DNA of 64,000 nt, taken from positions 124,001 to 188,000 of the forward strand of contig JALDZX010000031.1 in the NCBI GenBank assembly GCA_022813865.1, written 5' to 3'. Of this stretch, positions 1-59,510 are shown piece by piece. The stretch's first letter is position 1. Each line of letters opens with the position of its first letter. Under the pieces are notes generated by a model that saw nothing but the letters and a program-made list of their open reading frames with translations, was not told the origin of the DNA and searched no databases. This DNA comes from Xylographa opegraphella (Eukaryota). The position numbers and the translations under genes are program-made.

Positions 1-3000
1 CAAGGCGAGCACCGTCGCTGTGTCTCTTTTGCTATCTCACACCGCCGGCTCTAGCGTTTCCAGCAGTCCCGCACCACGCGGCAACATGTCGGTGCCACCA
101 AGGCATGGTCAAGGTTCCATGCCGTCGTCGCAATGATGGGGTGAAACAATTCGAACAAATGGATGTGGAACAGCAGACCATGCCGACGGACGTGTTCGAC
201 AGCTTGACGCTACGAATGAATAACGCAGACTCCACTCCGTTTCAAGCAGAAGCATAAGTACTCTGTACGGTCTACGCTCTAGTCGCTCCATGCCGTGCCC
301 TACTCCGTACCTACCGATGCCTGCGGTCACCAGAGGCAATATTGCCTACCGTGGACGGAGTTCGAGGTGGACCGGTTCTCCCAGCTCATCGTCGGCAGTG
401 TGGCAAGCGACCGCAGCTCATTCGAGCAATTCGAGTCCGCTCTACAACAAGGCAAGATGTTCCTGCCCCCGTTCGAGCACAAGGCAAAAGTGTATCGAGC
501 CCGATGCAGCGTCTGGGGGGTTTATGCGCGCTTCATCTGATGCTCGCCCTCGTTTGGGGGATTAAGGTTCGCATGACTCTGGTGCGACCCGCGGCCCAGT
601 CTTGCCTTTAATCCTAGCCGCTGCTGGCTTGGCACACGACGGCGCTGTCGATCTCTTGCCAAGGCTCGGAGCACGGAACTTTTCACAGCGAATCAGTCCC
701 GACCGTTGACAATCCCAGCTGGATAAGGTAAGGGAAGGGAGTGAAATAATAGGCGGGCTGGATGTCGAAAGAGGAAGCTGCTGCTGATGTGTCAATGGCG
801 CCGGCAAAACTCCTCTGTTCTCTCGATCCTCTTTCACGCGCATCTCTCGGGGCAACAGTGCTCCGAGCATCACGGTCGCCGGGGACGAAAAGAAAGAAAC
901 GCACCAAAAGACGGCAGGATACGAGTGCTGGGAGCGGTGCGGGCGCCACCGAGGGAAGGGAAGGGAAGGGGATCCCCCGCTCCTGCTGCGTCACCCCGTG
1001 CTCGACCCCGCAGCGGTGCGAGCAGCGAAAGGCAAAGCTTATCGTCTTTACACTTTCCGCCTTCTCTTCCTCCCAAACCTTTTTCTGTCTGGATCGGTGG
1101 ACGAGGCGCGATGCGGTGGGAGAGACATCGGGCGTGACGGCCGTGGTCGAGCGGTCTGATAGGGCCGGGAACGTCTCGCTCGCCTGCCCGGCGGCGTTTG
1201 ACTTCCCGCCCCCGGTGCCAGCGCGCAGTGGTCAAAGTGCCGATTGGTGTCGTACAACTGGCCGGTCGCCTTACGCGCACAAATCATACGTCACGATTGG
1301 AGGCTCCTGTCTTTGATCACGGAAGCTCTCTCGTCAAACAGGATCGAGCTGGCATCAGGGGAGTGATGCTGAGTCGGAAATGATGCATTGGATCATCATC
1401 GTGGGCAATCACGGCGGTGGGCATGGTGGAGGGGAGCTGGAGTCCGCAGTCTCGAGGCGTCTTCGTCGACGACGGACGACGGACAACTCGACTTCACCTG
1501 CTGGACCGACCCAATCAAGCTGGACTGCTTGTAGGCAGACTGGAACTTTGGGGCCGAGAGCAAGCCACCAGATGCGCCGTCAGCGTGATTGATCTGGCGC
1601 TTCCTGCACGAACTCTCCATCGGGACCGCAATCTGACTACTGAACAAAACTGACTAGATACTAACACATAGATGATCCGTATCGCCGGGCGTCCATCATC
1701 CTCACCAATGCCCGCAAGAGTCGAAGAGCCGCAGGCAATGGCAGGCATGGTATGTCCGTGGAATGTATCTAATATTTGGAATCCAGCGGAGGTACATCCC
1801 TTTAGGACATCCCCCAAGCATCAGCATTCCCTCCCCTCTCAGTACCATCATCCCATCCAACGTCGCCATCCATTCGCCTCCGCCAACAGTGCCAACCGGT
1901 GCGAAGAACCGAGCATCCGGGATCGCTGCACCCAAGCCGGTAGCGAACGTTGCTTGCCCTGCCGAGATCTACCCTCGATACCTTGCCTCGTCGACTCGCT
2001 TCCGGAGCGATCCTCTCATCGCCCATCTCTCACCCGGGGGGAGTTGACATGACTCGCGAGCCCAGGAACCGGCCGTGCCGTTCTTCCGCATCGGGGAAAT
2101 GATGCTTCGGACGCATTGCAAAATCTCCCTGCCTGCCTAGGTAGCCGTTTGCTTTGCTTCCGCCGAGCTGTTGTCCTCGGTTGAGCCCGCGCTTTTGCCT
2201 GCGATGCAGCGTTGCCTCGTTCGCGGCATTGCTCGCCCTCGTCTCGAACACCGGACGAGATCCCTCTCCTGAAGCGGACGAACGGTGCGCTCCTACCGAG
2301 GTAAAAAAAAAAGAAGAAAAAAAGGGTTCCTCTGCCATGTCCGCACGCAGGGCAAAACCATCCCGGCTCCCGTCCTCGGAACTCGTTTATTATAGTCGCG
2401 GCCACATCGGCGCTGCGCATCGCGTGAGAGCTCAGGCCTTTGACTCATCTTGACTTACTCAATCACCACGGACGACGCACTCGCTTCCGCTTCTCACGCC
2501 TCCTCGAGCGCGCGTGTGCATGACGTCCGAATCCACCCTGCCCCGCCCGCTGCCCCGATCCATTCGCGGCCCCGACAGACTGGATCGCCAGCCCTGAGCC
2601 TCGCACCCTGTCCGGGCCACGTCCATTTCCCATTCCGCTCCGCTTACCTATACACCGTAGTGACCAGAGCAGCCCCCGCCTCGCACGGTCCGCCCAGCGA
2701 GCTCTCACGTTCCGGGATATTTTTTTGTTTTAGCACGCAGTGTTGCCGTTCAGACCCTCCCGAAATATCAAGCGCCACGAGGAGCTAGCAGGACGGCTGC
2801 TGGTGCCCAGTTAGGGCAACGCTCATGCGCTCCGTTCGTAGCGGGGCACCAAAGGCAACGCATGTAAACAATTCTTCGATGAAGCTCACGAGCTCCAAGG
2901 ACGAGAGGGTCTTTGAGTGAATAGCAACCATCCTGCAGCTGTCGTATCGCGGAACCCCCAAACACTCCATGCTCACCGCCCGCCGAGTAGATTATCTTCC

Positions 3001-3219
3001 CTTCCAACCCCCCCCTCCGTCCTCTTCCCCCTCTCCGTCCTCTTCCCCCCCCCCACCCCCCCCCTCGCCAACCGCTCCCACCCATTTCCATATCCAAGAA
3101 GCAGAAAACAGAGGTGGATGACGCAAGGCAGGACGGAGCGGAACAATCAACAACAAAGCCAATCCCCCCAACAAGCCCTCGCCATATGCCCACCCCAACC
3201 TACTCATCACCTCTCCTCC

Positions 3220-5578
3220 CTACCCCCTTTTCCCCTCCCTTCCCCCCAACCCACCCCCCTGCAAACTCTGCCACCGCAACCCACTAACGCCGACGACGGC
3301 ATTAAACGCCTCGTCCCTCTCCTCTCGGCCCATCCTCAACACGTACACTCCCCCCTCCCCGCCCCTCAGCTCCAGCCGCTCGTGCGGCGTCACCAGAGCG
3401 GCGAGGCGAGAAGCGGAGGCGGCGCGTTTGCGCATCTCCGCGAGGGAGGCGTAGGGGATTGTGAATGCGGCGGCGGCGTGGATGGTGGGGTGGGTGGGGC
3501 GGAAGGTGAGGGCCGATGGGGAGAGGATGAGGTGCCCCGGGTGGGAGGCGTGGGAGGCGGGGAAGGAGAGGATGGGGGGGAGGGAGGGGGGGCTGGAGGT
3601 GGAGGGGGGGGTGTGGAAGGGAGGGGAGGGGGAGGTGTCGGAGTCGGAGTCGGAGTCCGCGGTTGTGGTGGTGAGATGGCCACTGTAGGCCGCGAGCGGA
3701 GGGTGCGCGTCCTCGTCGAGGAAGTCCGTTTCGACTTGGCGCGCGATTAGCTTCTCGCGCACGACTTGGGCCTGGCGCCGGAGGTAGGCGAAGGACCATT
3801 CGGCTAAGGTGATTGGTTAGCATGGTGATTGCCCATAGGAGGATTTTGGATGCAGGGGTGGAAGAGAAGGATACCGTTCGTAGGCACGTCCCAGAATACC
3901 CACTTGAAGGGCGACACGAGCAGGCGGTACTTAGGATAGTGGCTCGCGATCGGGAAGGTCACGAAGAAGGCTCCGCCGGCGAGGAACCAGAAGATCTTGA
4001 GGCAGAAGACGAGGTCGGCGCAGACGGAGATGAGGAGGCAGACGGCGAAGAGGCACAGCGTGGCCATGGTCTTGCGCGGGTACTTCCACGCGTAGAAACT
4101 GTCTCCTGGTCAGCGATGCTCCGGGTGCCGGGGATCGGGGGACCGAACTTGGCGAGGACTTCGAGCATGTTGGCGAGGTCGTTGAGCTGTAGTTGGAGGT
4201 AGGGGCCTAGCTCGTCGACGAGAGGCTCGAGCCAGTTATCGCGGCCGTGCTTCTCGATCAGTTCGCCGAAGTGGAGGGCCGTGCCTTCCAGGCCTTGGGA
4301 GCGGCGCACGGAGGCTTGGAGGTCGGCGACGGAGGAGGGGTGGTAGCGGTTCTTTAGGACGACGTAGATGATGTACAGCCACTAATACGGGACGTGAGCT
4401 CGAGGGTTTCGTCTGCTGCGGCATTACTCACGAGGAAGCCTATCTCAAACTCTATTGGCCAGTCAGTTAGGAGGTCCAACTCTACATGAAGTGATAGCAC
4501 GTACGGAAGTACCACAGAACCGTGTATATGGCGAGCCACGCGCCTGTCCGCCGTGGATTCTCCCACCGGTAGATACTCCTCACATCCATGGCCCATTTCT
4601 GCCACGGCGCACTCGCCATAACCAGGCGCTCGACATGATCTCTCAACTGATCGATGTCGAACGGCAGCTCGTCGAAGTCGTCAATATACTGCGCGCTGAA
4701 ATTCTGCGTGTAGAAGATGATGTTCTGCGGAGCCGGTCAGATCGGATGTTCCGTACAAAGCCCGTCAGAAGGTGGTGACGAAATACAGAACCTAACCAGC
4801 GCTCCCACCTGTACCTCTTCACGTTGCCCTTCTCGTCGCGTTGGATGAAAGCTTCCGCGTCTGGCCATTTGATATGCAGTTTGTGGATGGCGGCGACGCG
4901 GTCGATATGTTTCGTCGTCCACGCCACAAGTGTACTATCCCGATGCTCCTCCAGCAGTTTCGCCTTCTCTCGCTCGTTGAATCCCGCAGCAGTGCCGTCT
5001 ACGGATGTGCCAGAGTCAAGAGCTCCTTGTGCCTCCAGAAACTCTAGATCCGCTGCATCCGAGAGTTGTGGCTTCTGCATCCGGGCTACTTTCTCCGCGG
5101 TCTTCCTATGCGCCTTGCTCTGCGCCGTTTTCCGCGGGTGGATAATAGCTCGACCAACAGAATGCAGGTTGTGAAGCCCTTTACCCACTGTGCTGATAGG
5201 CTTCTCCAACTGCTTTCCGGCCTCATCTTCAACCCGATTCGGATGAAATGCCGGGTCATCATTGATGTTGGATAAGATTGTGGCGCGGGTCTGATCATCT
5301 TCTGAACGGACTGGGTCTTCATGATCATGAATATGGAGGAGTGCCTTCGTCTTTTCCTTCGCTTTAGCTCGGAGGCCTGGTTCTTTCTTCTTACTGTCAT
5401 CCTCCCCCACATGGCCGCTCGTTTCCAAGGCGTCTTTATGATAGATAGCATGGACATGCTGGTTCTCAAGCCCTCCGTCATGGTTGAGTGGTGTCTTCGC
5501 AGCCTCATTCAGGAACGGCGTAGTGGACACGGAATCGAGACCGGCTTCGAAGCGAATTCTTTCGAGATCCATGGCCAT
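3220..5578 (-). CDS. Conserved fungal membrane protein with C-terminal GRAM/PH-like region (6 exons)
   Basis: ORF fragments 4643-5599, 3959-4309, 3804-4067 and 3220-3762 join through five GT-AG introns into one frame (..ERLVMASAPWQ..YRWENP..TM segments..WDVPTN/AEWSF..GHLILSPSALTF..RDEAFNAVVG). First ATG is at 5578; the ORF-track start is TTG. Domain name is tentative. Confidence 0.7.
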
Positions 5579-6328
5579 TTTCTCCAATACACTTTCCAAT
5601 CATTCCAGAATTATGACTATTTTTATAACCTTCATACAAAGTGACACGAGGCTCAAAGATACCATATCGCATTATCCACAAACTCCTTCAAACATACACA
5701 AAATAGCAATGCAAGACAGTTCAGTTGAAGCCTAGATGACGAAAAATCACTGCCTACGGAGCCACCACGCACCATGGTGGCGACACAATTCACGGGCTCC
5801 ATTTCTTCCAGACGGGATATAGGGAGATCAATAGTCAACTAATAATGACGAAGCAAGAACCAATATTCTTGGATATTCAGCCATATGGAACAGAAGCGAT
5901 TGGCGGACCCAGCGACACCGCCGGGCACTAGCATTGCAGCGCCCTGATGCTCGGAACACGATGTCATAGGAGGGTCTCGCCCGATGTAGATGGTCCACCT
6001 CACCTGCGCCTTGCAATTGATCGAGATCAAGATCGAGATGTACTCAGCCTAGCCTAGATAGTGCTAGACTAGGTACAGGACAGTCCAATGAGTGCTTAGC
6101 ACGATAAATGATAAATGTAGAAAGTTGTAAAACTTCAGGACCGGTCCAGAGCTCGGAGACTTCAAGAATGACCATCGGATAATGATAATACAAACGATTG
6201 TGGATGAGATCGTAGTATCTTATTCAACCACCGCAGCGGTGGGAACAGTAGAGATTCGAAAATGCTATCCATGAACATTAACCGCTTTCAATCGTCCACT
6301 ATCAAGGAAACCACCCTCCCTACCTCCT

Positions 6329-37789: not shown

Positions 37790-38071
37790 GGCAGACTCAG
37801 AGTTGTGAGCATGACAGGTGTTTCTGAAAGCACCTGTGTAACATGTCCGACGTATTTCAATGGTCTTGAACTCAGATACCCTTATTTAGTCCTGGGGAAT
37901 TCCACGAATTTTCAATCTGAGCTTCATTTCATCGACACTCAAATTATTGATTACAGCCAATTCACCAAAAAAACCACTTCACCACTCACTACTCAATAAC
38001 TCTCATAATCTCTAATCTATGATACTCTCCAATCCTCCTCGCCCCACACCCCACTCCACCCTCCGCAGACC

Positions 38072-38935
38072 ATGCTCCTCATCGGCCTCACCGGCTCCAT
38101 CGCGACCGGCAAATCCACCGTGTCCGCCCTCCTCTCCCAACCTCCCTACTCCCTGCCCATCATCGACGCCGACCTCCTCGCCCGTCAAGTCGTCGAGCCC
38201 GGCACCCGCGCATACAAACAGATCCTCGCCCACTTCGCCCCCACGACCCCGGATCTGCTCCTGCCCGCCAACCACGATCCAAACCCCGCACCACCCGGCC
38301 CCTCGCAAGGACGCAATGGCTCCCGCGGCCGGCCCCTCAACCGCCCCGCCCTCGGCCGCCGCGTCTTCGGGCGCACGCCCTCGCGGCAGCGCGACCGCGC
38401 GGTGCTGAACGGCATCGTGCACCCGGCCGTGCGGCGCGCGATGGCGGTCGCGGTGCTGCGGGCGTACCTCGCCGGCCACTGGGCCGTCGTGCTGGACATC
38501 CCGCTGCTGTTCGAGTCCGGGCTCGACGTGTTCTGCGGCGTGGTCGTCGTGGTCGGGGTGCGCGAGCCGCGGGTGCAGATGCAGCGGCTGCGGGCGCGGG
38601 ATCCGCATCTGAGCGAGGCGGAGGCGGGGGAGAGAGTGCAGAGCCAAGGGGGGGTGGAGGGGAAGGTGGGTAGGGTGAGGGAGAGGGGGGCTGGGTGGGG
38701 GGAGGTGGTGTGGAATGATGGGGGGAGGGAGGAGTTGCGGGGGGATGTGGCGGGCGTTATGCGGAGGGTGCAGGGTGGGAGTCCGAGGTGGTGGGCGTGG
38801 CTGTTGTTGGGGGCGCCGTGGTTGGCCGTTGGGGTGGGGGCGTGGTGCGTGTTTGTGGGGTGGTGGGCGAGGAGGAAGTGGGAGAGGAAGGAGAGGGAGC
38901 GGGAGGATGAGGGGAAGCCGAAGTTGAAGCTGTGA
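38072..38935 (+). CDS. CAB5: Dephospho-CoA kinase
   Basis: IGLTGSIATGKSTV P-loop, IIDADLLARQVVEPG, LNRPALG, LNGIVHPAVR, LDIPLLFE, C-terminal TM helix. Confidence 0.95.
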   Translation: MLLIGLTGSIATGKSTVSALLSQPPYSLPIIDADLLARQVVEPGTRAYKQILAHFAPTTPDLLLPANHDPNPAPPGPSQGRNGSRGRPLNRPALGRRVFGRTPSRQRDRAVLNGIVHPAVRRAMAVAVLRAYLAGHWAVVLDIPLLFESGLDVFCGVVVVVGVREPRVQMQRLRARDPHLSEAEAGERVQSQGGVEGKVGRVRERGAGWGEVVWNDGGREELRGDVAGVMRRVQGGSPRWWAWLLLGAPWLAVGVGAWCVFVGWWARRKWERKEREREDEGKPKLKL

Positions 38936-39591
38936 AGGGGCGTTACGTATCAGGGAAGTTCAGTTGGGACGTGGACTGCTAGAGAGAGCGCTATGTTTTG
39001 AGGTGGAAGTGGACCCCAGCAGTAAATGTGGCCTACATGGACAATCGCTGCCGGCGTTCTCGATGGCAGTCGGTGCTGGTGGTACCACAAGCGCGTCGCT
39101 GCCAGTTTACACAATCCGGGAAAAAGAAAGTCCAGCACAGGCTATCATGCACATATCAAATCAAAGCTATCTACTTCGATTGACTTTTACATTTTTATGT
39201 TGGACCGCTCCTTCTATTGTTGATCCGCCAGCACGGGATTGCGGAATGTCCCTTCTTCCGGTATCACAACGCCGTCAACGGTCCAACGTAAATGATAGAG
39301 AGGTCAACTATGTGCCTGAAGACACCTAGACACGCAAATGATATGCTTGACGCTCGAAAGCGTGGTAGTGGATCACATGATCCCAGGAGCTAGTGCAGGG
39401 TTGACGTTGCCAGACTTTTCAAACCGGCGAAAGAGTGTTCCATCGTTCCTTCCTCCTACCTACCTGTCAGTGTACCGCCCATATACTTTGCCATTGTGTC
39501 GTATTATCATCAAATTTGTCTTTTGCAGTGACGGTATACAGATATGAAAGCTGATTGATTCGTTTTTGGCAATGGAAGAACGTGTGTAAAA

Positions 39592-43203: not shown

Positions 43204-43973
43204 ATGATCATTTCGGTCCGCGGTTTCCCTACTCTTCTCTTCCGCCGTGTTCCTGTCTCCGTCCACCGCGCATACTCCACCGCTACATCATATTCCGATA
43301 GAGTCCCCACCAACGACCCCAACCCTCCGAAACCAGCTCAGAATGTGTCTGAAACCAATGCTACACCTATGGAGGAGTGGAAGCGTGATGCGGATATGGT
43401 AGAGTCTACCGAGGATGCAGAAAAACAGCGTACAATGCAAGCGCCCAATCGGGCGAAGGTCTGGAGTCGGAGTCAAGCGCCACGGGAATTGGCGATGAGT
43501 GGGCCAAGGTTCGAGCAGACAATTATGGAATACCAGGTCAGTGGAACCTCGTGCTGCAGGTTCTGTGACCAGAGCAAAAGCTATCACTGTTTCGGTTCTG
43601 ACAGATTGTGGCGACAGCCTCAACCTCTGGCAGCGATAGATCTGATCCACAAACAGCCTGTCCGCTGGACAAGCAGCCATATAGTCTCCTGCGATGGAGG
43701 TGGAGGACCATTGGGTCATCCAAAGATTTTCATCAATGTGGATAAGCCACAAATCAACTGGTGCACCTATTGCGGACTACCATTCGTGAGTATCTTGAAT
43801 CTCCGACGGGGTCCTGAAGTTCGATCTAACTGTATGGGAAGGCTCATAAACATCACCGCAAGTTCCTCGAAAGTCTACCTCGCACAGAATATCCATTGAC
43901 ACCCACAAATGATCCAGCAGAAGTCAACGAGCAACAGCGAGTACAACCGAACGACCCCTTTGGCCAAAGGTGA
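43204..43973 (+). CDS. NDUFS6: NADH:ubiquinone oxidoreductase zinc-finger subunit (NDUFS6/NUMM) (3 exons)
   Basis: Mitochondrial presequence, QAPNRAKVWSRSQ, GPRFEQT, CDGGGGPLGHPKIFINVDK..CTYCGLPF. Confidence 0.93.
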
Positions 43974-44113: not shown

Positions 44114-45070
44114 CTATATTTCCGCAATCCGTAATGCTCGGATCCACGAATCGGCATATTCTGCTTCTGCTAACCATTCTGCCCGCCTTTGCTCTTTGCT
44201 TTGCTGTTTTGCTTGTAAATCTGCTCTCTCCTGGTTCCATAACCGCAAAGTCTGCTCATACTCTTCCCTCTTTCCATACCTATCAAGAACTTCCTCAAAT
44301 ACACTTTCCCGTGTCAACTCTGCTACCTCGCGTAGCTCCTCTATGCCCACCCGTTGCGGCAACCAATCGTCCACAAATTGCTGATACAGCGGCCTCTTGC
44401 CCATCCTCTTCCGATCATTCGATTTTAGCTCCTCCCTCAAATACCTGTCCTTTCTGAAGAATCGCGTACTAGTCGCATACTCGTACAGCTCGTTCATGGT
44501 CGCGAACTGTCTCCAGTATTTCTGTACGTCTAAGCCCATCAGTTCAAGCACGGATGTTGGGTTGGACGTCAAGAAGAGCATGCTCTTCTTCCGGTCCAAG
44601 TGCTCGATCTCAGCTATGCGGAGGTTCAGACCGACGTTGTTGGCCGTGAGGCCGAATCCGCGCAGTGATGTCCCCAGCAGATTCCACAGGTCGCCATGGG
44701 AGGCCATGAAGAGCTCCCAATGGAAGGTGGATGTAGGGCAGACATGGATATCGAGCTGTATATATTCGTCCGCACGATCAGGGAATGGGATAGCAAAGCT
44801 GCTGGACGGGCTTCCTGATGTTGACACCGAAGTCTTGGCGTTTAGGGCTTGAGAAATTGATTGGGTTGTTGTCGTTGAATGAGGTTCGGAAACCAGGATG
44901 TCTATGTCCCCGTGGGAGGTCTTCTCTGGGACTTCGATCGGTGATGCTACAGTCTGGTAGAATGTTGAGAGTAGGCAGGTGTACTTGTCACGGAGAAGAA
45001 CGTAGACTTCGTGGGGAATGCGTGGGGTGCACAACGAGTGCGGTGGATGTGCAAACGCATTACCTCCCAT
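44114..45070 (-). CDS. Uncharacterised Pol-beta/PolX-superfamily nucleotidyltransferase-like protein (MGGNAF-start), intronless
   Basis: Single exon from ATG 45070: MGGNAF, PEKTSHGDIDILV (DxD), YIQLDIHV (third Asp), SHGDLWNLLG, GLTANNVGL, VLELMGL. Confidence 0.75.
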   Translation of the reverse strand: MGGNAFAHPPHSLCTPRIPHEVYVLLRDKYTCLLSTFYQTVASPIEVPEKTSHGDIDILVSEPHSTTTTQSISQALNAKTSVSTSGSPSSSFAIPFPDRADEYIQLDIHVCPTSTFHWELFMASHGDLWNLLGTSLRGFGLTANNVGLNLRIAEIEHLDRKKSMLFLTSNPTSVLELMGLDVQKYWRQFATMNELYEYATSTRFFRKDRYLREELKSNDRKRMGKRPLYQQFVDDWLPQRVGIEELREVAELTRESVFEEVLDRYGKREEYEQTLRLWNQERADLQAKQQSKEQRRAEWLAEAEYADSWIRALRIAEI

Positions 45071-57100: not shown

Positions 57101-58799
57101 GTGCCAGCCTTGTCCTCAGACACAATCAACTGGCTTGTAGAGGTATACGTCTTTCTTCATACAATAAGTATTTACGCTTCGCTGACATATGATAGCATGG
57201 CTTTGAGCCGAAATCATGCCGTTTGTTGAAAGACCATTGCCATCGAGCCATCAAAACATATTGCGAGCGCTTAAAGGATCGGATGAATATCAGTATTGGC
57301 CGTTCAACATATGCTTTTATGATAGCGGATCCTTTAGCTATACTTGAGGAGGGTGAGGTACATCTTGGGTTTTCAGGGGCTTTCAGGGATGAAAAGTCTG
57401 GATTCAACGAAACCTTCCTCCATAACATGGATGTCCTAGTTGCCAGGCTTCCTGCTCATTTACCATCTGATATCCAGAAGGTAATTTTTCTCCGCGAAAA
57501 CATGAACGTATTGTGGCTGATGTTTGTAAAATAGGTCCGAGCAGTCTTTAAGCCTGAACTGAGCATTTATAAAGATGTCATAATTTTCTCCTCGAGGGGC
57601 GAGTGTTCGTTGGCCTCTAAGCTGTCAGGGCAAGTGACTCTCTCATTTACGATGTTGCAATCAGAGGAAGCTAACAGACCATTAGCGGTGACTATGATGG
57701 TGATCAGGCGTGGGTCTGTTGGGAGCCTGAACTTGTCCAGCCATTCACCAACGCGGATGTCCACGTTGCCCCAGACCTGAATCACTATGGGATAGTCAAG
57801 GACGAAACGAAGCTTGCCGATATCATCAATGCCCCAGATTATATCTCCGCTTTCCTAAGGCGAGGATTCGATTTTAACATCCAGTCACCCATGCTGGGCA
57901 TGTGCACGGCCTATCACGAATCCCTTTGCTACTATTACATGCCCATCAACAACCCTCAAGCCAAGAATATAGCTGTACTACTTGGCTACCTCGTCGACAG
58001 CGCCAAAGGCGGCTTCATCTTCACCGACGAGATCTGGAAAGAGTTCCGCGCCCGCAACGGCCTGCCCATGATTCCTAAAACCCCCGCCTACAGATCCGGC
58101 ACCCCCCCGCGCCGCATCGAGCACATCATCGACCGACTCGTCTTCGTCATTGCCAAAAAAGTCATTGACACAGCCCTCAGCCAGTTTTCGGAGCGCTTCA
58201 AAGATGCCACCGACTGGGACGACGACCTCAACGCCGTGTGGAAAGCGGAAGAGGAGGCCGCAACCCGCGACCCGCAGCTCAAGCGAATCCTCGTCGACCT
58301 CCGTGCCCGTCTCGAGGACCTGCAGGCGTTCTGGGCCCGCAACGCCCACATCAAAGACCCGGACGAGTGCCGGTCCCGCGGCAACGAGACCTCCTTCCGC
58401 GCACGCCTCGACCAGGTGCGCGAGCGCTTCCTCGCGATCCAGCCACTGCAAGACAGCCCGTACGTCCTGGCGGCGCGGTGGGCGCTCGACGAGGGGAGCA
58501 CCAAGGGCGCCTGGACGCGGCTGAAGGCCAGCGCGCTGTTCAAGCTGTTCTATACGCGCGGCAAGTTCGTGTGGTACGTCGCGGGCAAGGAGCTCGTGCA
58601 GCTGAAGATCCTCGCCTGCGGCCGCGCCTCCAGCGTCGTCGAGGAGCTGTGGCGCGTGTACCGGCTCGATGCCCGGCTGCTGAAGCGCATTGAGGCCAAC
58701 CACGCGGCCAGGAGTGTCCTCCCCGCCGAACTGGGCGGCGGCGACGACGACGACGAGTGGGGGGACGGCTTCGCTGAGTATCCGGTCCAGGTCGAGTGA
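54116..58799 (+). CDS. qde-1: RNA-dependent RNA polymerase, QDE-1-like (RNAi/quelling), 8 exons
   Basis: RKFGGDRF, KLFARISL, MND/GCARIS, YQGRIGGAKGIW, ADPLAILEEGEVH, VLVARLPAHLPSDIQK/V, DVIIFS, KLSG/GDYDGD; seven introns reconstructed, the last one GC-AG. RdRP is secure; the QDE-1 clade is inferred. Confidence 0.92.
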
Positions 58800-59510
58800 G
58801 CTGGCGGGTCCTGCGGACTGTCGACTTCCCTTATCTATACGGTGTGCTGGGGCGCAGGTTGGGGAGGGGGGGCTTTGGAGAGGAGGCGGGGGCTTTGGAG
58901 CTGCGCTTTTTGGGCTGTCGAGGCGGAGTGGCGGGGGGTTCGATTGGATGTCGCGGAGTGGTTGGTCTCCTGGAGATTCCGGAGGGTTAAGGTTGCGCGT
59001 AATGTGGGCTCCCTAACGAGGGCTTTTCGGTTCATGTGCATGGGGCATACATACGGCACGCACGAGTCGTTTGACGGAGGAGTATTTACCCCCGAGTGGA
59101 GACATGTTTTCTTTTGGGCTTTGGGGATCTTTACGTGCGAGATACGCTACGATTGGATTTTCTGTTATGTTCTTTTCGAGCGGCCCGATGGGGCATTTCT
59201 GCCTTCTCTTGGACATATGGAGTTCCGGCCGGACGAGCAGCAGCTTCTGCATAACTATTGTCCTATTATGTCTACCGTGATGCAGTAGTGCCATCGCAAT
59301 GCAAGTGAGCGGCCAACTCAACTCCGAGGAAACTACCTACCCGACAAACTGCCCCTCCCCGGTAGAGGACATCTCGTGACAGCTCCCAAGTCCGCCAACC
59401 GAGAACAAGCAAAGCTGGCCATCAAGCAACAAAACACCCCCGCTAAAACATACCTCGTCGTCCTGCGCACCCACCCATCCCTCCCTTCCATCACCCCCTC
59501 CCACCCCTGT

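Follow-up and report, generated by a model that had tools for sequence, protein, structure and literature searches.

Which reaction, and on which substrate, is carried out by a stand-alone fungal protein that bears the motifs of a family X DNA polymerase (PolX)? The question is raised by a gene in a 64,000-nucleotide stretch of Xylographa opegraphella DNA (contig JALDZX010000031.1; the whole stretch analysed is hereafter referred to as the window), which encodes a protein, P0001, with the N-terminus MGGNA. From the letters, a preliminary description had proposed a single-exon protein of about 318 residues, and one minus-strand reading frame of that length is indeed present (Table 1). The five motifs that it had listed (GDIDILV, QLDIHV, FMASHGD, GLTANNVGL and VLELMGL) all occur in P0001 as given. 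The label 'intronless' fits the Xylographa gene but not three fungal relatives that were read (L282, L286 and L291), in which a spliceosomal intron interrupts the gene close to its 5′ end.

Two lines of evidence set this frame apart from a chance one: P0001 has 191 homologues at E ≤ 0.001 (out of 1615 candidates), and dN/dS ranges from 0.16 to 0.41 among eight fungal orthologues (15 of 28 pairs, with unsaturated dS; the remaining 13, in which dS was saturated, were left out of this range). These values show purifying selection on the fungal gene. The best-matching named homologues are Xylographa proteins (75–81% identity), P0001 is the sole match in a search of the 24.7-Mb genome, and the GC content near the gene (0.49) is that of its surroundings. 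The convergent neighbour, a 210-residue zf-CHCC protein encoded with two introns and matching PF10276 (E 7.5e-19), is one that we take to be NDUFS6, and the stop-to-stop gap between the two genes is exactly the 140 bp first noted. Synteny with this gene is seen in 11 of 50 fungal loci, many of the other 39 being short, and is missing in other fungi where the locus is longer; NDUFS6 was therefore rejected as a functional partner, and the proximity looks like ordinary local synteny. The gene neighbourhood in fungi is uninformative on function.

Table 1. Positions in the window of the P0001 gene, its motifs and structural elements, and its convergent neighbour
Feature	Position	Strand	Basis
Whole coding sequence of P0001 (318 aa, one exon, single copy)	44114..45070	-	ORF; AlphaFold model, mean pLDDT 96.2, pTM 0.89
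Met-Gly-Gly start, family signature	45062..45070	-	G2/G3 in 94/94 fungal and 54-55/56 viral rows
PolX-type palm + thumb, residues ~4-200	44471..45061	-	VIA-align Z 10.8; Foldseek E 6.5e-7 to Pol lambda
Arg17 of RIP, equal to the RIP/RMP motif of Pol beta/lambda	45020..45022	-	Alignment to Pol lambda
K50-T-S-H-G54-D55-I-D57, invariant Lys and catalytic Asp 1 and 2	44900..44923	-	Alignments
Q105-L-D107, third catalytic Asp, Gln replacing PolX Arg	44750..44758	-	Profile alignment
M122-T134, remodelled nucleotide-pocket helix pair	44669..44707	-	hhalign 95.7, with YFTGxDIFN...R of the Pol lambda-like protein encoded in this genome
VLELMGL, thumb end, aligned with IFQILGV of the genome's own PolX	44531..44551	-	hhalign
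Basic helix L215-R226 (R220, R222, R226), family-specific	44393..44428	-	Helix in model
50-residue C-terminal helix 268-317, net acidic	44120..44269	-	Model
Convergent neighbour, zf-CHCC protein (introns 43537-43617 and 43786-43841)	43204..43973	+	Outside the system

P0001 belongs to a large family that has no Pfam or NCBIfam model and extends across Pezizomycotina, jumbo phages, giant viruses and scattered bacteria. A Pfam search of P0001 assigned no family (neither PF14792 nor PF14791 was matched), an NCBIfam search gave nothing near a cut-off, and neither P0001 nor the fungal profile found a useful match in Pfam, NCBIfam, PADLOC or PDB sequences. The Pfam palm model is reached by only 3 of 114 family members (E 0.0036–0.1), and the viral profile alone reached Pol lambda in the PDB sequence search (E 0.004). 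With the fungal profile, 3274 representatives (50% clustering) were retrieved at E ≤ 0.001 and 649 at E ≤ 1e-30. Naming covered 20 of the 137 new identifiers from this search; named fungal members include Xylona, Geoglossum and Choiromyces, and none of the identifiers looked up lies outside Pezizomycotina. We take the fungal members to represent Lecanoromycetes, Eurotiomycetes, Dothideomycetes, Sordariomycetes and Leotiomycetes, and Choiromyces to be a pezizomycete. Further relatives are carried by the jumbo phages ME3, X1 and DT01, by many IMG/VR contigs, among them five giant-virus MAG contigs, and by bacterial assemblies (88 stretches, of which the best 80 were used); the gene is scarce in bacteria, being present in 2 of 301 Flavobacteriaceae genomes. 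No RNA holders of the family were listed. A search for longer, fused forms (775–2210 aa, among a maximum of 8000 candidates) gave one match, joined to NRPS domains, which is probably a gene-model read-through.

Some members already have names. P0001 matches PHROG 24943 ('DNA polymerase') at E 7.9e-20 over residues 1–235, the ME3 phage member is annotated as a DNA polymerase, and three fungal members are called 'Nucleotidyltransferase' in UniRef by automatic naming; the superfamily assignment is therefore not new. The PHROG and UniRef entries are the same family as P0001 and provide labels only, which agrees with the earlier remark on relatives without assigned activity in both fungi and phages. 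No paper describing the family or its RNA-repair context was found in the literature searched; RNA-repair surveys outside it, and supplements, may mention the family. The term 'PolX' is absent from the searched text of PMC7824862 and PMC9503650, whose figures and supplements could still list the family.

The AlphaFold model of P0001 was built on an alignment of 150 rows; the conservation counts below refer to 94 fungal and 56 viral rows. Among 48,161 solved chains, its ten best matches are family X polymerases only. Pol beta (3k75) aligns at Z 10.8 with an rmsd of 3.7 over 179 residues, residues 4–200 of P0001 superposing on residues 135–338 of Pol beta; Thermus PolX reaches Z 10.5, a TdT chimera Z 10.2 and ASFV PolX Z 9.9. 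Foldseek pairs the model with Pol lambda (Table 1), hhalign aligns the P0001 profile, at a probability of 95.7, with the Pol lambda-like protein encoded in the same genome, and the model of a phage member has the same fold (Z 11.7). Nucleotidyltransferases outside PolX stay at Z ≤ 6.7 over about 90 residues: MenT1 and TUTases come next (Z 6.0–6.7), and cGAS, CD-NTases, alarmone synthetases and antibiotic nucleotidyltransferases match the 90-residue core only (Z ≤ 6.3; cGAS and CD-NTase signal synthases, Z ≤ 5.3). No RlaP structure occurs among the fold-match rows listed for the P0001 and phage models.

The Pol beta palm and thumb that the preliminary description expected from a predicted structure were thus recovered by both Foldseek and VIA-align, and the proposed absence of lyase and HhH domains is confirmed, P0001 beginning at about Pol beta residue 135. 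The word 'minimal' does not fit: the thumb is followed by about 120 conserved helical residues with near-invariant arginines, which are absent from ASFV PolX, and the alignment with the latter stops at residue 195. The fold is that of a nucleotidyltransferase, the catalytic Asp residues are conserved, and the protein falls into no well-characterised family such as CCA-adding enzymes or Trf4. P0001 is built on a PolX chassis but falls outside family X by several defining features.

The catalytic centre itself has been retained. D57 and D107 are present in all 150 rows and D55 in 149, so that the three-Asp site is intact, as first described; G54, R17 and N130 are also kept from PolX. R17 (Arg in 93/94 fungal and 56/56 viral rows) presumably contacts the triphosphate. 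N130, the equivalent of N279, is N or Q in 87 of 94 fungal rows and is retained together with D127 in the pocket helices, where the G274 and R283 positions are altered. The accessible part of PMC9226535 gives the triphosphate motif 179-GSFRR-183 and the sequence 271-YFTGS-275, with a cis peptide at G274-S275, as PolX features, and describes R183 and G274-S275 as nearly invariant among active canonical prokaryotic PolX. In P0001, GSxRR is lost: the stretch reads PIEVP, with Pro48 at the R183 position, a column that holds Pro in 93 of 94 fungal rows and Arg in 17 of 56 viral rows. YFTGS is not kept but remodelled to MASHG, and the G274 column is aromatic or His in 90 of 94 fungal rows. Gln105 takes the position of R254, the Arg before the third Asp, and T134 falls in the R283 column, in an alignment with a one-residue gap nearby; most fungi have T, S or V in this column and 46 of the 56 viral rows R or K. 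The Y271 and R283 positions are mostly retained in phage members. In PolX, R283 contacts the template.

Other features are the family's own. An invariant Lys, an invariant Gln and the N-terminal Gly-Gly are features that PolX lacks; Gly-Gly stands at positions 2–3 in 118 of 120 further matches and in 216 of 257 fungal matches. R226 is present in all 150 rows, and R220 and R222 each in at least 90%; we propose that the helix carrying them (L215–R226) may act as a nucleic-acid grip. The tail was called basic in the preliminary description but is net acidic over residues 241–318 (13 K+R versus 19 D+E), the basic patch lying at residues 201–240 (12 K+R versus 6 D+E). Viral and bacterial members have a KFNG...GKELG tail, unlike the C-terminal helix of P0001. 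A likeness of that tail to CCA enzymes, suspected by eye, was dropped (profile E 0.8 to the Aquifex enzyme and at least 4 to neighbouring CCA tails).

The RNA-repair context of the bacterial relatives is new here. ORFs were called in the 76 loci whose family gene is complete; of 335 same-strand neighbour clusters, the nearest 150 were scanned with Pfam, and seeds of an RNA-repair set (RlaP, RNA ligase, CCA enzyme, RtcB, Hen1-Pnkp, Thg1 and T4-type Pnk) were mapped to all loci. A core RNA-repair gene lies within 7 kb in 23 of the 76 loci, which represent 6 of 35 genus-level groups (groups being counted from record titles). All 12 loci of the Undibacterium group are positive, ten of them with an RNA ligase 11–13 bp upstream; in Flavobacteriales, RlaP lies within 34 bp in 6/6 loci, and RtcB, Hen1-Pnkp or T4-type Pnk is found nearby. 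A CCA-type enzyme fused to RlaP is located 35 bp upstream of the family gene in L132, and an Rnl2 ligase 16 bp upstream in L157. L149 and L158/L159 are also flanked by RNA-repair genes and may be phage contigs in bins. In the fetched flanks of the other 53 loci (29 of the 35 lineages), several of them on short contigs, no core RNA-repair gene of the seed set was found; these loci include Massilia, the Thiothrix group, Pseudomonas, most Sericytochromatia, Deinococcus and myxobacteria.

By chance, RlaP adjacency would be expected in about 0.2 of 76 loci, and three independent RlaP lineages among 35 correspond to P ~1e-4. RlaP occupies one locus per 4–6.4 Mb genome and lies beside the family gene in four of five such genomes, which were picked because the adjacency had already been seen. 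Among 301 evenly drawn Flavobacteriaceae genomes, RlaP is present in 16, mostly as a tandem pair, and in both genomes that carry the family gene the two RlaP genes flank it on either side. One of the two is the seed genome, the other (G261) is the source of locus L187, and this sample therefore adds background and not new cases. Of 59 loci scanned, eight have a same-strand array of 12–24 tRNA genes no more than 7 kb away; these loci belong to two lineages, Undibacterium and Flavobacteriaceae. CCA is encoded in 1/18 and 2/20 tRNAs of Flavobacteriaceae arrays and in 15/15 of Undibacterium; a simple CCA-substitute role suits the former but not the latter, and was rejected. Long tRNA arrays are induced with rtcB under translational stress, according to the accessible text of PMC8421152.

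Phage records provide a weak link to RNA repair. In 21 of 73 non-redundant viral loci an RNA-repair gene occurs in the fetched 4–6 kb flank (the viral Pfam scan took in 300 of 541 neighbour clusters); CCA genes lie 24 bp (L003) and 17 bp (L077), and an RNA ligase 13 bp (L063), from the family gene, and tRNA genes are near it in only 12 of 77 viral loci. Because large phages are rich in RNA-repair genes, whole records were tested, using 30 long records that were selected by length and whose flanks had already been seen. At a cut-off of 8 kb, the family gene has an RNA ligase, RlaP or CCA gene as its neighbour in 7/24 records versus 3.0 expected (Fisher P 0.027), and a gene for DNA ligase, ribonucleotide reductase or DnaB in 4/26 versus 3.5 expected (P 0.28). 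Single families were unconvincing: DNA ligase (P 0.06) performed as well as CCA (P 0.07), and RNA ligase gave P 0.19. RlaP is found in 2 of the 30 phage records and RNA ligase in 21, counts in which divergent RlaP may be missed; on this uncontrolled pattern, the family is a possible stand-in for RlaP in phages.

In one phage subclade the protein carries a short leader directly before Gly-Gly, which ends in L/I-K-E (3/4) or, in L011, M-K-E; L023, without Gly-Gly, is the exception. Similar leaders are found on adjoining genes, including those for a CCA enzyme and a 2H phosphoesterase. The T4 prohead protease cleaves after L/I-X-E, as stated in the accessible part of PMC9026906. The leader suggests head packaging and a requirement for a free N-terminal Gly-Gly.

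The bacterial gene context is the reason that RNA-end repair is favoured here over the other roles considered. We give an even chance to the view that P0001 is an active Pol beta-superfamily nucleotidyltransferase, derived from a family X palm and thumb, that works on RNA ends. Its specific form, a 3′-end nucleotidyltransferase that restores lost nucleotides on damaged tRNA or other RNA ahead of ligation, could as readily prove right as wrong. In such a reaction D55, D57 and D107 would bind two metal ions and activate the RNA 3′-OH to attack an NTP, K50 and R17 would hold the triphosphate, substituting for the lost R183, and the R220/R222/R226 helix together with the free N-terminal Gly-Gly would hold the RNA. 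One or a few nucleotides would be put back on a cleaved or trimmed tRNA, at an anticodon break or at the acceptor end, and a ligase would then seal the restored tRNA, an order of events that has been shown for RlaP. The fungal copy would keep this RNA-end role and pass its product to the genome's own Trl1-type ligase; the genome encodes such a ligase as well as a Swiss-Army-knife RNA-repair HAD domain, and a search of it for RlaP (PF10127) gave no match. Of the roles first suggested (terminal transferase, repair enzyme or signal-nucleotide synthase), context thus favours repair, at RNA ends, whereas the signal synthase finds no support.

Several observations qualify this proposal. The bacterial and viral relatives that supply the context are only ~20–25% identical to P0001, and, given these distant relatives, the long branch and the changed R283 position, the function may have shifted in fungi. 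In the RlaP-flanked cases the exact reaction must differ, as two enzymes for one step would seem superfluous. The nearest solved folds are without exception DNA polymerases, which counts against an RNA substrate.

An unlikely but substantial alternative is that P0001 is a stand-alone DNA repair polymerase or terminal transferase of the ASFV PolX kind, which would fill gaps of one nucleotide or add tails to DNA ends; its basic C-terminal helix, in what we also hold to be an unlikely elaboration, would replace the lyase domain and grip the downstream 5′ phosphate. The best folds (Pol beta, lambda, TdT, bacterial PolX and ASFV PolX) all point this way, as do the retained N279, the Y271 and R283 positions of phage members, the names attached to PHROG 24943 and ME3, and the DNA ligase of phages, which is about as close to the family gene as the CCA gene. 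However, the R183, R254 and G274-S275 positions have changed, pooled DNA-side markers in phages are at chance, and no recurrent DNA-repair gene was seen among the 150 bacterial neighbour clusters scanned of 335. The genome moreover already has two canonical PolX genes (L105/L106), its sole Pfam palm and thumb matches.

The RNA-centred context would equally fit an RNA-directed effector, MenT- or TUTase-like, that extends the ends of tRNA or other RNA with extra nucleotides and so blocks, marks or turns over these molecules. We consider this rather improbable, along with its corollary that a phage weapon against the host was domesticated in fungi for RNA quality control. Phages and mobile DNA widely carry the family, the folds that rank after PolX are those of MenT1 and TUTases, and HipA-like kinases lie near L142 and L151; yet no antitoxin-like partner recurs among the neighbour clusters scanned, PADLOC gave no match below E 0.006 for eight members, the P0001 genome has a single copy, and a position among repair genes suits repair better.

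We find it hardly probable that the acceptor is something other than nucleic acid, P0001 being a protein or small-molecule nucleotidyltransferase or a synthase of (cyclic) oligonucleotide signals. The missing DNA-gripping domains, the lost R254 position, the invariant Gln, Lys and Gly-Gly foreign to PolX, the NADAR and NAD-salvage genes near some members and the head-packaging-like leader of a phage subclade could be read in this way. Set against these are the PolX thumb, a nucleic-acid-binding element that has been retained, the core-only matches to cGAS, CD-NTases, alarmone synthetases and antibiotic nucleotidyltransferases, and the finding that no effector or receptor partner recurs among the neighbours scanned. 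Least probable by far is a catalytically weak or dead nucleic-acid-binding relic in fungi: GSxRR and the GS cis-peptide motif have changed, and polymerase activity is missing from non-canonical prokaryotic PolX whose dNTP pockets are degraded, but inactive PolX have altered triads (both in the accessible part of PMC9226535), whereas the triad here is intact and the gene is under purifying selection.

A mixture-model IQ-TREE tree (50 rows, 14 of them fungal proteins, unrooted) unites the fungal proteins in one group (100/100) and sets this group, together with six giant-virus-type proteins, apart from the phage and bacterial members (95/85), and FastTree on 166 rows agrees; L008 was assigned to the giant-virus group from the tree and its neighbour genes. 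A P-x-K triphosphate loop is present in fungi, five of the six giant-virus-type proteins and the leader-bearing phage subclade. With 2.08 changes per site the fungal stem is long, and the trees are unrooted because a scan for viral PolX outgroups found none. The viral origin that had been raised as a possibility thus gains from a phylogeny that places fungi beside giant viruses, on a long branch. A virus-to-fungus gene transfer is likely from these sequence comparisons, but unproven in view of the long stem, uneven composition and unrooted tree. Intron gain in some fungi and the synteny in 11 of 50 loci indicate a long-domesticated gene and no recent insertion; the fungal copy would stem from a single acquisition from a virus-borne lineage near the base of Pezizomycotina.

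Filamentous fungi may therefore have borrowed an RNA-end-patching enzyme from viruses. In a fuller scenario, which we put forward as doubtful, a PolX core was recruited into the RNA-repair kits of phages and bacteria and there became an enzyme that fills gaps or restores ends in RNA by means of a free Gly-Gly and a new basic helix. Some phages would pack this enzyme into their heads and inject it along with further repair enzymes, and by way of giant viruses it would have entered the ancestor of filamentous ascomycetes, where it would restore nucleotides so that the Trl1-type ligase can mend tRNAs cut twice by ribotoxins. If P0001 acts on RNA, a palm–thumb known as a DNA repair module has turned into an RNA-repair enzyme, and the family is a candidate defence against tRNA-cutting toxins in filamentous fungi, including crop pathogens and lichen fungi. 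The family is also a candidate for an ancient virus-to-fungus gene transfer; were the joint viral-origin reading true, it would represent a eukaryotic tRNA-repair enzyme of viral origin, of which no description was found in the literature searched.

Compared with known systems, P0001 is closest to family X polymerases (Pol beta, lambda, mu, TdT and Thermus PolX), with which it shares a palm and thumb of ~170–180 residues (Z 8.7–10.8), the Asp triad, the RIP motif, the N279 position and a thumb end of the type hydrophobic-x-x-L-G-L. It differs from them in having no 8-kDa lyase, HhH, BRCT or PHP domain and no PF14792 or PF14791 match, in the replacement of GSxRR, R254 and G274-S275, in ~120 extra helical residues, and in bacterial relatives that occur in an RNA-repair context. 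ASFV PolX (5hr9) is likewise viral and a stand-alone palm and thumb without lyase or fingers (Z 9.9, rmsd 3.4, 157 residues). Its 176-residue chain, however, ends at the thumb, is 14% identical to P0001 and has neither the MGG start nor the C-terminal helical extension of the family; nor is it the best match, Pol beta being within 1 Z and thus tied with it. CCA-adding enzymes and Trf4/TUTase-type transferases act on RNA 3′ ends and share the Pol beta nucleotidyltransferase core, and CCA genes adjoin the family in L003, L077 and L132; these enzymes match only an 87–93-residue core (Z 5.7–6.6). For the CCA-adding enzyme, there is no PF01743 match in P0001, Z is 5.7 over 92 residues, and the likeness in the tail failed its tests; for Trf4/TUTase, P0001 has no PAP-associated Pfam match, and Z 6.4–6.6 is confined to residues 19–120. 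RlaP, which extends the 3′-OH of cleaved tRNA by one or two NMP (accessible part of PMC12776372), belongs to the same superfamily as P0001 and shares operons with RNA ligases, as do a subset of the bacterial relatives (23 of 76 loci). By contrast, the P0001 family has no PF10127 match, possesses a PolX thumb and is found in Pezizomycotina, and its gene adjoins RlaP without being RlaP itself.

Capsid-targeting-like leaders that end in Glu open the family protein in one phage subclade, and the neighbours of the family gene there (for example, a CCA enzyme and a 2H phosphoesterase) likewise begin with Glu-ended leaders. Together these proteins are a candidate RNA-repair kit packaged in the phage head.

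Each chromosomal array at the family-bearing bacterial loci comprises 12–24 tRNA genes and is accompanied by RNA ligase, RlaP (the RNA-ligase-associated nucleotidyltransferase family), RtcB or Pnk. CCA ends are encoded in all 15 of the 15 tRNAs of the Undibacterium array, and in just 1 of 18 and 2 of 20 tRNAs of the Flavobacteriaceae arrays. Some degenerate tRNA-like copies lie ahead of the arrays at three loci (L176, L179 and L181). At a further locus (L132), the family gene is immediately preceded by a single ORF in which RlaP is joined to an enzyme of the CCA/poly(A)-polymerase type.

Coordinates of the features described
Locus	Position	Feature
Window	44120-44269	P0001 tail region
Window	38001-39000	GC peak
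Window	38072-38935	ORF within the first GC peak
Window	58001-59000	GC peak
L010	2301-3320	Leader-bearing phage subclade, capsid-targeting-like N-terminal leader
L011	4959-5966	As above
L012	4971-5966	As above
L022	4971-5963	As above
L023	65-1492	Same phage subclade
L115, L127, L136, L143, L144	about 400-5900	tRNA arrays
L173	32-1764	tRNA array
L179, L181	11126-14970	tRNA arrays
L132	4951-6966	CCA/poly(A)-polymerase–RlaP fusion
L158, L159	7953-8333	Small ORF (both loci)
L007	3242-5233	PP-loop–DUF924 fusion

The fungal members fall into two C-terminal tail forms, short (110 of the 240 scored) and long (119 of 240). P0001, the window protein, has the short form, which is closed by one long helix. 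Immediately past the family gene in L158 and L159, a small ORF matches the family's C-terminal tail profile (E 0.002); it may be the tail domain encoded on its own.

Among the BFVD rows, several phage proteins 250–1100 aa long and so far uncharacterised (for example A0A6J5LVS0, A0A6J5KQK8 and A0A2L0UZB9) show a more distant likeness to the fold; together they may be a broader set of PolX-like transferases. In the 1,039-aa database protein P0378, family sequence is joined to NRPS condensation and carrier domains, probably through gene-model read-through.

Within the window, GC content has local peaks of 0.69 and 0.66, against about 0.50; an ORF in the first peak resembles dephospho-CoA kinase by its motifs. 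On a giant-virus contig (L007), the gene next to the family member encodes a PP-loop protein (ATP_bind_3, TilS/TtcA-like) fused to DUF924.
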